64,000 bases of DNA. It comes from an uncultured Actinomycetota bacterium (GTDB lineage Bacteria > Actinomycetota > CALGFH01). This document shows positions 43,859 to 54,886 of this stretch, piece after piece. The translations under genes were made by a program, and so were the position numbers. The stretch covers positions 65,720-129,719 of the forward strand of contig CAVTCL010000025.1 of NCBI GenBank assembly GCA_963733175.1. The letters are read 5' to 3'. Under the pieces are notes generated by a model. That model was given only the letters and a program-made list of their open reading frames with translations. It did no database searches and had not been told where the DNA came from. Numbering within the stretch: the first letter of the stretch is position 1; every line of letters starts with the position of its first letter.

Positions 43859-44496
43859 AGGAGTTGCGCCTCACGGTCGCCGATGATCGGGAGGTGGCGG
43901 AGGCTGAGGGCCTCCTTGACGTGGTGGTCCTCGACCCGGTCGGAGGTGGCGAGGTCGGCGACCGTCCGGGCGACGCGGAGGGCGCGGTGGAACCCGCGGG
44001 CGCTGAGGCCGAGACGATCGACGGCGGCCATGAGGGTGCGGCGGGCCGCCGGTGTCACCTGGCAGTGAGCGGCGAGGTCGGGGGCGGCCAGGCGGCCGTT
44101 CTCGGCGCCCTGGCGGCGGCGCTGGACGTCGCGGGCGGCCAGTACCCTCGCCCGGACCTGCGCGGTCGGCTCGGCGTCGGCGGCGCCGGTGAGCTCCTCG
44201 GCGGTGAGGCGCTCGGCCTGGACGTACAGGTCGATGCGGTCCAGCAGTGGCCCGGACAGGCGGCTGGCGTAGCGGTGCAGGTCGTACAGGCTGCAGCGGC
44301 AGGTGAAGCGGCTGTCCCCCAGGTGCCCGCACGGGCAGGGGTTGGCCGCCGCGACCAGGGCGAAGCGGGCCGGGAACACCACGCTGGTCATGGCCCGCGC
44401 GACCGTGACCTCGCCCTCCTCGAGCGGTTGGCGCAACGCCTCGCAGGCCGCCCGGGAGAACTCCGGCAGCTCGTCGAGGAACAGCACGCCGCGGTG
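43855..44496 (-). pseudogene. comM: comM/yifB (Mg-chelatase-like AAA+ ATPase), 3' fragment left of the insertion
   Basis: From [12 protein letters not shown] (Walker B) through NPCPCG... to the C-terminus. No ComM-like sequence lies upstream of 44,496. Confidence 0.9.
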
Positions 44497-44520
44497 CCCG
44501 ACGGTGCGGCTAACACCGCC
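44470..44520. other. left attachment junction (attL-like)
   Basis: gccgcgg-TG-cccgacggtgcggcTAACA, with host sequence to the left of the TG at 44,495-44,496. Confidence 0.6.
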
Positions 44521-44640
44521 GGGAACCACGGCGAAGACATGCCCGGAGCGACGTAGGAGCGTCCCCCGGGCTCGGCACGACGAGGATCGGAGCCCTCGCC
44601 ATGCAGAGGCATCGTAACGCGTTCCTGGAGGCCTGGGGAG

Positions 44641-45040
44641 ATGGCGACCTCACCCGTCCCGCTGTGGGCGCAGGAGATGAGCCCCTACCACCGCGGGCCG
44701 ACCGGCGCCGGCGTCCTGGCCCTGGCCGTCGTGGCGGTCCTGCTCGGCCTCGTGCTGAGCGCCAGCGCACCCAGCCAGCCCAGCGAGCAGGACGGGCCGC
44801 GCTGGCAGTCGCCGGCGTGTGCCGAGCTGCAGCGGCTCCAGCGCCACGGCGTGGACAGCGGGCCAAGCTACAGGGCCGTCGCCCGGGCCTGTCGGGAGGC
44901 GAGCAGTGGCCGCTGAGTTCGAGCCCTGGCCGTACGAGCCCTGGCCGGTACTGTCCCGAGAGCCGGCCGGCTTCTGGGAGGACTGGCCTTACGAGCCACC
45001 CCCACCGGCCGAGCCCTGGCCGGCTCAGGAGAGCCGGTAG
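44641..45040 (+). CDS. hypothetical small membrane protein with Trp/Pro/Glu-rich repeat tail (two overlapping ORFs, possibly one frameshifted gene)
   Basis: TM helix GAGVLALAVVAVLLGLVL in ORF 44,641-44,916. ORF 44,819-45,040 ends FEPWPYEPWPVLSREPAGFWEDWPYEPPPPAEPWP, with gagccctggccg repeated in the DNA. Confidence 0.4.
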
Positions 45041-45141
45041 CGCGGGGCTGGAGGGCCTCCAGGGGGAGGGCCGCCCCTTCGGGGCGGGCGGCTCCGGCGG
45101 CAGCCTCCGCCGCCCGGATCGTCCGGATTGCACACCGGACA

Positions 45142-45183
45142 TGCCACGCCAATGCCGCGCTACTGCCACGCCAATGCCACGCC
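45142..45183. repeat. iteron-like direct repeats tgccacgcc(aatgcc)
   Basis: The 15-nt tgccacgccaatgcc occurs at 45,142 and 45,164 (22-nt spacing), and a third tgccacgcc at 45,175. Confidence 0.7.
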
Positions 45184-45243
45184 CCTCCTGGCGCGGGCAG
45201 CGGTTCTCGCCGCAGCAGCGTTCCTGCAGGTAGATCCCCCTCC

Positions 45244-45286
45244 GGGGGCCGAGTCACCCGCAAAAACCGCGGGTGACTCGGCCCCC
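45244..45286. promoter_or_regulatory. 18-bp perfect inverted repeat (candidate oriT/ori or operator hairpin)
   Basis: gggggccgagtcacccgc-aaaaacc-gcgggtgactcggccccc, flanked by small ccccc/ggggg hairpins, about 120 nt upstream of the Replic_Relax-like gene. Confidence 0.6.
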
Positions 45287-52573: not shown

Positions 52574-52962
52574 GTGTCCCTCCTCTCGGACTCACTCTCG
52601 AACTGTGCCGCTAGCTGTATCGCTGCCATGCTTGGCAGGCATTACCCCAACGGGATAACCATGCGCCGTAGCGACCCCCCCAACGGTGCTTCCACAGAGC
52701 GCTGTGCACGAGTGTCGTGTTGCTGAGCGGGCAACCAGCTGCTGCGAACCACGCTGGTCCGTGCCACCGACCACGCCCGCCGGTGAGGACTAAGCGGCTG
52801 TGGCGTTGTAGAGATCGGTTCTGGCTTGGGTGGTGGGTGAGGCCGATCGCCGGTGACCGTCGTGTCGTTGCCGGGCCGGAGGGCGGCCGCAGGCCGCCCG
52901 CAGGGCCGGCCTTGAGGGTGTGGAGAAACTCCTCACGGCTGCCGCCCCAGGGAGGAGGGGGT

Positions 52963-52988
52963 CCGGGGGAGGAGGCCTCCTCCCCCGG
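52963..52988. repeat. 26-nt perfect palindrome
   Basis: ccgggggaggaggcctcctcccccgg is self-complementary. It lies in an about 700-bp stretch with no convincing ORF. Confidence 0.85.
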
Positions 52989-53295
52989 CTTGACCAGCCA
53001 TCCGGGTTGCCCGGGCATGGCGGTGTCGGTGGGGCGCGATGCCGCCCCGTCAAGCGGCAATGTCCGGCATCCCGCCACAGCTCAGCCGTCACGCCGCACC
53101 CCATTGGCGCTTGACGGGGTGCCGTCAGGTCAGGCGCCCGCCTCCCGGAACCTAAGAACTTCCTGAGAAGTTCGTCCCATTTGGTGCCCCCTGGTTCCCC
53201 CTCGTGCCTGCTGGTGTCCGTGCGTGCCCCTGAGTCCCAGCGGGGCTGTGGATACGTAACGGTTGAAGGCCGCCTAACCGTGTTTTCCTGGCTGG

Positions 53296-53440
53296 GTGAC
53301 TGCGCTCGACCCCGGAGACATCGACCGCCTGGCGGTCGAGTCCCGCCGCCGCCAAGGCCTCCCCGACTACGTGGAGGACCCGGCCACCATCGCCCGGGTG
53401 GTCCGGCTCATCCTGGCCGGCCGCCCGCCGTCAGGTCCGC
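53296..53440 (+). CDS. hypothetical small protein convergent with, and running into, the recombinase 3' end (3' end unresolved)
   Basis: GTG start. The first about 45 codons (LDPGDIDRLAVESRRRQGLPDYVEDPATIARVVRLILAG) have near-uniform G/C at third positions. Beyond about 53,430 the frame is just antisense to the recombinase. Confidence 0.35.
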
Positions 53441-54828
53441 CAGATGACCTCGATACGGGAGGGGTCGAAGACGTTGCGGCCCTGGAGGCAGGGGTGCAGG
53501 ACCACCCTTTCGACCACCGCCGCCAGGACCGCGCGGCGCCAGCTCAGCCCCCCAGTGGCCCAGGCCTCGCGCAGCGCCCGCTCCCCCACCGGCAGGGCCG
53601 CCAGTGTCCGCGTAGCTGCCTGGCCCGCCAGGCGCCGCCGGGTCGTGTCCATGCGCGCCTCGACCCGCGCCCTGGCCCGGGCGAAGTCGGCCCGGCGCAG
53701 GGTGCCGTCGGCGAAGGCGTCGACCAGCTCGTCCAGGCGGTCCTGGTCGACCTGCAGGGCGTGCAGCAGTTCCCGCTCGGCCTGGTCCTCCCCGGTCGCC
53801 GCCGCCAGCGCCGCCGTGAGGGCTGGCCCGCTGAGCTGGCGGACCACCCACTCAGAGACGAGCTGCTCGACCGGCTCAGCGAGGCGGCCAGTCTTGCCGC
53901 AGCCGCCGAAGTTCGGGCCCGACGCGCACACGTACCGGCGGCGCCGGTCCTGGCGGGGCCGGGCGACCAGCTTGCGGCCGCAGCGGCCGCAGACCAGGAA
54001 GCCGCTGAGCAGGTAGCGGCGGGCGTCGATGCCGTTGAACTTCTGGCGGCCGGGGTCGGTGAGGATGGCCCGCAGCCGCTCGTGGGTATTGCGGTCGATG
54101 ATGCCCGGCCACACCGCCTCGGCAGTCACCACGCCGTGGTGCTCGCGCAGCCCGGCGATGCGGGCCGACAGCAGCATCCGCCGGAGGGTCTGGGTGCGCC
54201 ACTGGCCCCCGGTCGGTGTGGCGGCCTGGCGGGTGTTCCAGTCGGCGGCGATGCTTCGCAGCGACTCGCCGGCCAGGACCCGAGCAACGGCCTCGCGGAC
54301 CAGCTCGGCCTCGGCGTCGACCAGGTGCAGGCGGTCGGCGGTGTAGCCGAACGGGCGGGTGCCGCCGCCGGCGACGCGGCCCTGCTCGGCGGCCTGGAGG
54401 GCGGCGCGCTGGATGCGCCGGCGCCGGTCGTCGTTCTCCTTCTTGGCCACCGCGCCGAGGATGCGGGCGTGGAAGCGGCCGTCGTTGGTGCCCAGGTCGA
54501 CGTCGCCGGCCACGCTGGCCAGCCGGGTCACGCCGGCCCGGTCGCAGACCTCGAAGAAGCGTTCCAGCTCAGCAGGGCGGCGATGCAGCCGGTCCAGCGC
54601 CCACACGATCACCGCATCCACCAGGCCGGCCTCGATGTCGGCGAGGAGCCGCTGGTAGGCGGGGCGGGGCCGGCCGGAGTCGGCGGACACGTCGTTGTCG
54701 CAGTAGACCTGGGCGACGGTCCAGCCGCGGCGCTCGGCCAGCTCGCGGCAGTCCCGCTCCTGACGCTCGACACCGGCCCGCAGCCCGGAGGGGTCCGAGC
54801 TGATCCTCACGTAGACGGCCGCGGGCAT
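53431..54828 (-). CDS. large serine recombinase (integrase)
   Basis: 465 aa with N-terminal resolvase catalytic domain (AVYVRISSD...GVERQ), recombinase domain and a zinc-ribbon region (CGRCGRKL...YVCASGPNFGGCG) followed by a coiled-coil-like tail. Confidence 0.9.
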   Translation of the reverse strand: MPAAVYVRISSDPSGLRAGVERQERDCRELAERRGWTVAQVYCDNDVSADSGRPRPAYQRLLADIEAGLVDAVIVWALDRLHRRPAELERFFEVCDRAGVTRLASVAGDVDLGTNDGRFHARILGAVAKKENDDRRRRIQRAALQAAEQGRVAGGGTRPFGYTADRLHLVDAEAELVREAVARVLAGESLRSIAADWNTRQAATPTGGQWRTQTLRRMLLSARIAGLREHHGVVTAEAVWPGIIDRNTHERLRAILTDPGRQKFNGIDARRYLLSGFLVCGRCGRKLVARPRQDRRRRYVCASGPNFGGCGKTGRLAEPVEQLVSEWVVRQLSGPALTAALAAATGEDQAERELLHALQVDQDRLDELVDAFADGTLRRADFARARARVEARMDTTRRRLAGQAATRTLAALPVGERALREAWATGGLSWRRAVLAAVVERVVLHPCLQGRNVFDPSRIEVIWRT

Positions 54829-54835
54829 GGTGGAC

Positions 54836-54886
54836 CCGGATGTTACAGTAGATCCCTGCCATGGGCGAGGGAGACCTCGCCGGGTC
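54836..54886. other. right attachment junction (attR-like)
   Basis: TGTTAcagtagatccctgcca-TG-ggcgagggagacc, with host comM sequence to the right of the TG at 54,862-54,863. Confidence 0.6.

Follow-up and report, generated by a model that had tools for sequence, protein, structure and literature searches.

The magnesium chelatase/ComM gene family is a documented target of large serine recombinases (LSRs). Durrant et al. (2022) found it to be the most frequent LSR target, hit by 12.4% of the predicted site-specific LSRs, with competence genes enriched among the targets (PMC10083194), and most sr1WO recombinases of phage WO integrate into the magnesium chelatase gene of Wolbachia (PMC9203015). 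Integrative mobilizable elements (IMEs) with serine recombinases also integrate inside genes (PMC5704250). Here we describe a 10.37-kb integrative element that splits comM (yifB) in a 64,000-nucleotide stretch of DNA, hereafter the window, taken from contig CAVTCL010000025.1 of an uncultured Actinomycetota bacterium (assembly GCA_963733175.1). We consider it probable (about 0.8) that this is an integrative element of an uncultured high-GC actinobacterium which was inserted into comM by its own LSR. An earlier reading of the bare sequence (the original prediction) had implied that a serine integrase aimed at comM would be new. The published cases do not support this, and the element is a further example of documented LSR/comM targeting and not a new kind of system. 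As a phenomenon the locus adds little, LSR elements in comM-family genes being the commonest published case; its additions are modest and consist of the covariation of the core dinucleotide, a hotspot used by different elements, and an unannotated coupling-protein-like family.

The window element resembles the LSR elements of Durrant et al. in recombinase class, site-specific domain architecture, target gene family, insertion within coding sequence and minimal shared core, and in that distant LSRs converge on one gene. It differs in its host, an uncultured high-GC actinobacterium, and in its LSR, whose nearest relative in the genome collection is 57% identical; its backbone is not described in that study (PMC10083194). 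The likeness to sr1WO is one of target and flanks: in both, an LSR has the magnesium chelatase gene of the host as its target, and pieces of that gene lie at both ends. But sr1WO is a complete temperate phage, and its host is an alphaproteobacterial endosymbiont, whereas the window element is 10 kb long, lacks virion genes and encodes a coupling ATPase of the conjugation type. Its small size, single serine recombinase, position inside a dispensable conserved gene and very short flanking repeats recall the serine-recombinase IMEs (PMC5704250), as does the presence of some DNA-processing or coupling functions with no mating pore. However, the described IMEs come from Firmicutes and encode relaxases of recognised families, whereas we found no canonical relaxase or origin of transfer (oriT) here, and the ATPase falls in no Pfam family. 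With integrases of the Bxb1, phiC31 and A118 type the element shares crossover at a 2-bp central dinucleotide, the lack of a target duplication and a polarity set by the dinucleotide, with both orientations found at one register. The targets of those phages are different (groEL1, a pirin-like gene and comK), and the window LSR is at most 41% identical to any phage integrase. In the A118 type, the disrupted gene (comK) is likewise a competence gene. Finally, islands of the AbaR/Tn6019 type interrupt comM of Acinetobacter baumannii and abolish its transformation function. Like them, the window element is a genomic island that interrupts comM, but AbaR islands are Tn7-like, with TniA/B/C-type genes and a 5-bp duplication, and none of the AbaR/Tn7-like hallmarks (TnsA/B/C genes, terminal repeats, 5-bp duplication) was found in the element, whose junctions share 2 bp only.

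The comM gene lies on the minus strand and is interrupted after its SLA codon, leaving two parts on either side of the insert:

43855..44496, minus strand: 3' part of comM, which begins with the core CA followed by C-CGC-GGC-GTG and runs through Walker B to the stop codon
44495..44496, unstranded: left crossover dinucleotide TG (CA in the comM orientation), at the junction bearing the comM 3' part
44497..54861, unstranded: inserted element, 10,365 bp between the core copies and 10,367 bp counting one copy
54862..54863, unstranded: right crossover dinucleotide TG, at the junction bearing the comM 5' part, 33 nt upstream of the integrase ATG
54862..55745, minus strand: 5' part of comM, 294 codons and the first two bases (CA) of codon 295, with the ChlI and Walker A region

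The 5' part ends in PGEVSLA-CA, and in the integrated state its translation continues into GRDLL and a stop codon. Minus-strand translation confirmed this exit from the comM frame (RPGEVSLAH followed by GRDLL) and the resumption at the Walker B box, both of which belonged to the original prediction; its span of 44495-54863, which includes both TG copies, was right, whereas its junction coordinates of 54,861/54,862 were one base off. The left junction reads gccgcgg-TG-cccgacgg and the right junction ccctgcca-TG-ggcgaggg, just as first reported. TG is the sole identity of the two junctions, and a repeat search found no longer direct repeat flanking the insert. Rejoining 54862..55745 and 43855..44494 (both minus strand) across one TG gives an in-frame open reading frame (ORF) of 507 codons, the product of which shows 91-93% identity over 100% of its length to four 507-aa orthologues (P0121-P0124). 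Many intact 507-aa ComM orthologues exist, and they align continuously across the join; PF13541, PF01078 and PF13335 are present in orthologues of the rejoined product, which their sources name magnesium chelatase family or YifB. An empty site was present in contig L081, in which yraN-comM is unbroken, the 507-aa gene is intact and the element is absent. The L081 DNA has the same length across the join and reads ...TCCCTGGCC-AACAAC-GGGGTCCTGTTCCTCGAC. The rejoined ORF, the end-to-end orthologues and the empty site bear out the proposal of a clean insertion rather than a deletion. From the window flanks, attB is reconstructed as ...GAACAGCACGCCGCGG-TG-GGCGAGGGAGACCTC..., and from the element ends, attP as ...GGATGTTACAGTAGATCCCTGCCA-TG-CCCGACGGTGCGGCTAACACC....

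The host block ffh-rimM-trmD-lepB-rnhB-lytR-yraN-comM-dprA-xerC around the insertion is conserved. Ten flanking host genes are intact, and comM lies directly upstream of dprA, with which it makes a competence-related pair. The GC content of the element equals that of the flanks (0.727 versus 0.735), and the element is therefore native to such genomes. No tRNA or Rfam family was detected in the window, so that an integration site of the tRNA type is absent.

The recombinase gene and the two element-side arms adjoin the junctions:

53431..54828, minus strand: LSR of 465 aa, apparently intact, with its ATG 33 nt from the right TG
44497..44530, unstranded: left element-side arm, one attP half-site, with TAACA at 44511-44515, 14 nt from the left TG
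54829..54861, unstranded: right element-side arm, the integrase-proximal attP half-site, containing GGATGTTACA, with TGTTA at 54841-54845, 16 nt from the TG

The 465-aa LSR announced 33 nt inside the right junction is indeed there, with all three LSR domains: PF00239 (Resolvase, 2.3e-28, residues 3-151), PF07508 (Recombinase, 1.3e-13) and PF13408 (Zn_ribbon_recom, 6.5e-11). In the family alignment, Y6, R8, S10 and D12 are invariant among 29 homologues, and C280, C283, C301 and C310 are the four invariant cysteines of the zinc ribbon. The protein is distantly similar to solved serine integrases. Against the XisF equivalog NF041201 it scored 84.9 bits, below the cut-off of 375, which leaves it outside the XisF/SpoIVCA type. 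The integrase and both att sites look intact. The GGATGTTACA of the right arm is the counterpart of a motif whose spacing is conserved in related elements: among relatives with 45-57% identity, a TAATGTTCC-like half-site motif has its end 22 nt from the core, and in the clade of the window, L084 and L085, the motif is TGTAACATCC and ends 24 nt from the core. The half-site motifs of the related locus L005 are exactly symmetric about CA (GGAATA-16-CA-16-TATTCC). In the window, the distances of 16 and 14 nt first given for TGTTA and TAACA held, and the symmetry claimed for them is real but imperfect.

A second copy of the element occupies the same site in a different sample (L089). It is 95.6% identical to the window element, and L089 is collinear with the window at that identity over 42000-49140 and 52904-55508, both junctions included. 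The window junctions read GCGG-TG-CCCG (left) and GCCA-TG-GGCG (right), whereas those of L089 read GCGG-TT-CCCG and GCCA-TT-GGCG. The rejoined host gene reads SLAHRG in the window and SLANRG in L089, and the latter motif is present in the intact orthologues P0125 and P0126. One ancestral insertion cannot alter both junctions in parallel, and TG/TG against TT/TT therefore indicates separate integrations with matched cores, and hence that the element has recently integrated on at least two separate occasions.

The same crossover register was observed in 20 related loci, 17 with the element in direct and three in inverted orientation. The two junctions of L005, L014 and L032 share CACGG, GCGCAT and GCGCACC, respectively, each containing CA in the same register. 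At 13 further direct loci, represented by the integrase-side junction only, the first two bases past the SLA codon track the host codon (CA/AA/GA/AC/AG). The three inverted loci (L006, L065 and L072) have the complementary dinucleotide in the same register, as expected if a non-palindromic central dinucleotide alone sets polarity, which is the case for Bxb1 (PMC3642061). Furthermore, the right junction, which joins the N-terminal part of comM to the integrase, recurs in five more metagenome contigs (L084-L088). The L084 integrase is 96% identical to that of the window, and those of L085-L088, from four samples, are 73% identical. Integrase homologues at 96% and 73-79% identity occupy the same arrangement, P0001 being 96% identical. 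Since the junctions are found in L084-L089, from other samples, they are not an assembly artefact, and the concern that they might be chimeras is answered by their reproduction in independent assemblies. A 2-bp crossover with no longer target duplication is well supported: the TG/TG and TT/TT pairs and the register of the 20 loci agree with the 2-bp staggered crossover by a large serine integrase that had been proposed. Exact-pattern scans of metagenome and viral contigs gave no match to the circular attP junction. However, a control pattern for the right junction was also unmatched although L084 matches it, so these negatives are uninformative and the scanned collection evidently lacks the relevant samples.

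Under the proposed mechanism, the LSR of the element would have placed all 10.37 kb into comM by attP x attB recombination, with a staggered 2-bp cut at the first two bases of the codon after the conserved SLA (CA in the gene, TG on the plus strand). The integrated element would part the Walker A half of ComM from the Walker B half and leave ComM inactive, and precise excision would restore the 507-aa comM. Integration at this position, beside dprA, necessarily inactivates ComM and could affect the recombination of incoming DNA in the hosts.

The integrase family extends well beyond this site. More than 1,270 homologues were found at E <= 1e-30, and a scan of species-representative genomes gave 80 loci at 43-57% identity in Actinomycetota, Chloroflexota, Dormibacterota and others. 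Among the approximately 65 loci with enough flank, about 14-15 are at comM and the remainder elsewhere. The comM-targeting integrases are scattered over a neighbour-joining tree and do not form one clade; all integrases in the clade of the window itself (at least 73% identity) are at comM. Beyond that clade, integrase similarity alone links the elements, and no other window ORF is shared. For these comparisons, a tblastx search of the element against 90 loci gave approximately 45,000 spurious high-GC matches and was replaced by tblastn of defined ORFs, with a threshold of at least 45 bits.

The comM site is also used by an element of another type. Contig L082 (positions 1-11945; ENA ERZ25039531 contig_88364) corresponds to window positions 54854-56184, with a ComM N-terminus 99% identical to that of the window, and its comM is interrupted as well. 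The L082 element is different and AT-richer, with TrwC fragments and AAA_30, NERD, CSD and STAS genes, and no LSR was found within 10 kb. Its insertion position agrees with that of the window within 8 nt or less, given a possible indel. The presence of an unrelated element at the same position makes the site a hotspot shared by different types of element. Closely related soil actinobacteria have, at this one comM site, at least three cargo versions of one element and an unrelated element.

Other targets of the family were sought in the longest upstream ORFs of the members outside comM. These were rejected as mostly shadow ORFs. In crude longest-ORF translations only, the integrase of L009, L057 and one further locus seemingly lies directly after the Walker A motif (...GAPGSGKTTL) of a CpaF/TadA-like secretion ATPase gene, which would be another competence- or pilus-linked AAA target. 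Near-identical integrases also occur twice in each of two metagenome-assembled genomes, namely L014 and L015 in MFD03638.bin.2.5 and L026 and L028 in MFD04944.bin.2.65. Only one member of the first pair lies at comM, an arrangement that could reflect a second attachment site or a nested element.

The left 4.9 kb of the element forms its backbone:

44641..44916, plus strand: 91-aa small protein with a hydrophobic segment, from the frame plot; a 91-aa gene lies in the same place in L089 and the P0248 contig
45235..45295, unstranded: inverted repeat, 27-nt arms 89% complementary with a 7-nt loop, just upstream of the winged-helix gene
45364..46143, plus strand: 259-aa protein with an N-terminal MarR-like winged helix (profile and fold matches; 841 homologues)
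46140..48176, plus strand: coupling-protein-like ATPase gene, broken, with N-terminal membrane helices, Walker A GAPGVGKT and Walker B VYLEEF
48699..49115, plus strand: single-strand DNA-binding protein (SSB) of 138 aa (PF00436, 5.4e-33; phrog_44, 1.6e-44), with a 93% identical copy in L084
49183..49386, plus strand: 67-aa four-cysteine protein (CPTC...CPVC), the last backbone gene, with a partial match in L083

Pfam, NCBIfam, PHROGs and PADLOC gave nothing for most backbone ORFs, and the 91-aa protein had no family match in Pfam and PHROGs scans. As for the inverted repeat at 45235-45295, candidate roles are those of a transfer origin (oriT) and of a terminator. In the C-terminal domain of the 259-aa protein, H125, D166, E188 and E190 are invariant and K194 is near-invariant. 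The AlphaFold2 model of this protein has a pLDDT of 91.6; Foldseek matched the winged helix only, with no PDB match to the C-domain, and one homologue weakly matches Replic_Relax. It is a putative DNA-processing or initiator protein, nuclease-like judging from its motif and predicted topology.

The ATPase gene changes frame three times through single-base deletions at approximately 46573, 47107 and 47445, with more near 47925-47984. Compared with L089 and intact 680-aa homologues there are at least three, and probably six, such deletions, all in one direction and several in short C/G runs. A conceptual merge of the three frames matches intact 680-aa homologues at 72-94% identity and up to 99% coverage, and the region is therefore one gene broken by single-base deletions. 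No Pfam family covers the ATPase. The AlphaFold2 model of an intact homologue (P0241; pLDDT 80.9) has TrwB as its best PDB fold (E 5e-12, target TM-score 0.55-0.60), followed by Cag-beta, VirB4 and HerA. The same backbone is found beside a tyrosine integrase in L090 (positions 7016-15717; GCA_009772905.1, WNGB01000736.1), indicating a portable module exchanged between integration systems. In L090 and the JGI contig of P0248, the backbone comprises the 259-aa protein, the 680-aa ATPase, a DUF2637 gene, SSB and small ORFs, and small genes equivalent to the four-cysteine gene follow SSB; the window and L089 are without the DUF2637 gene. The coupling-protein-like ATPase without a Pfam family, the winged-helix protein and SSB thus constitute a portable backbone that occurs with a serine or a tyrosine integrase.

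Two further features lie next to the integrase gene:

53156..53173, unstranded: perfect palindrome GAACTTC-CTGA-GAAGTTC, a candidate operator upstream of the ORF below, kept in L083, L084 and L089
53296..53430, plus strand: short conserved coding segment (VTALDPGDIDRLAVESRRRQGLPDYVEDPATIARVVRLILAG...), convergent with int, a candidate accessory or directionality factor

Substitutions in this segment relative to L085 fall mostly at third codon positions, and it has no Pfam match. No stop codon closes it in the window, L084 and L089, where it continues into int in antisense, whereas the ORF in L085 terminates at the int stop codon. A 67-aa minus-strand ORF (53152..53355) conserved in L083 and L084 was considered as a directionality factor and rejected, because its conservation belongs to the plus-strand segment at 53296 and to the upstream non-coding palindrome.

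The broken ATPase gene raises the possibility, which we hold only tentatively, that the insert is a decaying remnant that entered through its LSR and is now an immobilised, fixed island, incapable of transfer and perhaps of excision, with comM permanently inactivated in the lineage. The ATPase deletions, the missing DUF2637 gene, the short conserved ORF beside int without a stop codon and the ten intact flanking host genes fit such a history, as does the failure to find an attP junction, in a collection evidently without relevant samples. However, the integrase retains its full length (96% identity to P0001) and all invariant residues, both att arms are intact, and the TG/TG and TT/TT cores imply at least two separate recent integrations. 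The frameshifts themselves may be real decay or errors of long-read consensus or assembly: L089, the same kind of assembly as the window, has different frameshifts, including in int. An active role for the insertion, in which regulated excision and reintegration would turn ComM on and off, appears improbable. ComM promotes branch migration during transformation, and such a switch would have analogues in the serine-integrase prophage in Listeria comK and in skin and SPbeta of Bacillus. The possible in-frame restoration, the competence-related pairing of comM with dprA, the two-component sensor carried by the element and the enrichment of competence genes among LSR targets (PMC10083194) would suit a switch. 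However, the sensor cargo is not conserved among the element copies, and the unrelated element in the close relative L082 is easier to reconcile with a safe-harbour hotspot than with a domesticated switch.

It is very unlikely that the insert is a prophage remnant or phage satellite with a phage-type serine integrase. Although the nearest annotated phage relatives of the LSR are actinophage integrases (Kumao and prophiGD54-2, 37-41%) and SSBs are common in phages, capsid, portal, terminase, tail, lysis and repressor families were undetected, and a PHROGs scan of 10 element ORFs matched SSB only, with no virion or lysis family. A search of phage proteins matched integrases only, at 41% identity or less. 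Moreover, the element is just 10.4 kb long and has a TrwB-like coupling ATPase, and its attP pattern was unmatched in viral contigs, a negative that the control pattern makes uninformative. The nearest phage relatives also integrate elsewhere: the MabI prophages of M. abscessus, which together with Kumao are the 37-41% integrase relatives, use other genes (PMC8092301), namely MAB_3230 and MAB_3265. An assembly chimera, or insertion by another mechanism such as a Tn7-like transposon or a tyrosine recombinase, is effectively refuted already. The assembly behind the window appears to be a long-read metagenome with a degree of indel noise, comM is also known as a target of Tn7-like elements, and a tyrosine recombinase is encoded 2 kb to the left. 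But contigs of other samples reproduce both junctions (L089) or the right one (L084-L088); no 5-bp target duplication, terminal inverted repeats or TnsABC-like genes were found; and the tyrosine recombinase is the syntenic host xerC, beside dprA and outside the insert.

We therefore return to an integrative element inserted by its own LSR. The specific label of IME is somewhat favoured, because the backbone of winged-helix protein, TrwB-like ATPase and SSB is accompanied by no mating-pore or virion genes. Family scans of the insert ORFs detected no VirB4 or mating-pore family, and transfer would accordingly need a helper. The element had no match to FtsK_SpoIIIE or Rep families, in contrast to the TraB translocase and Rep that characterise actinomycete integrative and conjugative elements, and a plasmid DNA search with the element gave no match. 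This copy may be transfer-defective, given its frameshifted coupling ATPase and missing DUF2637 gene.

Several observations weigh against this account. The attB of the exact host strain is a reconstruction, the nearest empty site being that of a 93% relative that reads SLANN and not SLAHR, and the attP half-site motifs of the window are offset by 2 nt (14 versus 16). Pfam and NCBIfam scans of the element proteins gave no canonical relaxase family, and no oriT or directionality factor was identified in the element. The 259-aa protein, with its conserved D/ExE/K motif, is a candidate relaxase, but it is read as a nuclease from motif and topology only, its C-domain having no PDB match. The coupling-ATPase gene is frameshifted in the window, and the ATPase domain of P0241 matches PADLOC mad8 of the MADS defence system (E 1.1e-11), with the caveat that the ATPase may have a HerA-like, non-conjugative role. 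The lack of a circular attP junction in the scanned collection also counts on this side, though it says little.

The codon at which the crossover falls is highly variable among hosts. Among approximately 107 orthologues (P0121-P0240), the two residues after SLA (codons 295-296; window 44491-44494 and 54862-54863) are the sole hypervariable positions in the otherwise invariant GEVSLA--GVLFLDE. The pairs include HG (22), HR (20), HH (19), HL (14), NH (13) and HN (7), besides NN, NR, DH, AH, TH and others. The first post-SLA codon supplies the crossover dinucleotide, and the core tracks it, with CA, AA, GA, AC and AG for H, N, D, T and S, respectively. We speculate, with considerable doubt, that this codon is a site of host-element conflict, at which core changes in the host would block integration and elements would follow through their attP core. 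The idea comes from the hypervariable residues, the matched TG/TG and TT/TT cores and the inverted elements with complementary cores. If it is true, a single dinucleotide would decide which elements enter the hotspot and in which orientation. On the practical side, the locus offers what appears from its sequence to be a well-delimited natural attB/attP pair with a defined crossover register, together with naturally varying cores (CA, AA, AG and others) in both orientations. Integrases of this clade abound in uncultured Actinomycetota, Chloroflexota and Dormibacterota, for which genetic tools are lacking.

The middle of the element is probably a swappable cargo slot. In the window it contains:

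49631..51256, minus strand: sensor histidine kinase with MASE1, HisKA_3 and HATPase_c (NCBIfam matches all below cut-off)
51290..51784, minus strand: receiver-only response regulator (PF00072, 2.1e-14)
51835..51888, plus strand: duplicate of the four-cysteine ORF's 3' end (other copy at 49333-49386), forming a direct repeat of 54 nt with 85% identity
52109..52573, minus strand: DUF6325 protein (PF19850, 2e-08); a DUF6325 gene is also present in L083

The cargo of other copies is different. In L089, other DNA, with a NACHT fragment, stands in place of the window cargo, the cargo of L084 includes an ECF sigma factor and a bifunctional nuclease domain, and that of L083 is different again. The two 54-nt copies flank the kinase and receiver pair, which suggests that they mark a seam of recombination or accretion and that the cargo may have entered by recombination of two related elements. 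A scan for promoters and terminators gave sites no more numerous than in shuffled sequence. Between the second 54-nt copy and the DUF6325 gene, positions 51911-52059 hold an array built of 12-nt units, CCGGTCTCGCAG and CCGGTCGTCGCG, within a GC3-rich plus-strand ORF with PVSQ/PVVA repeats, which may be coding or may represent iterons.

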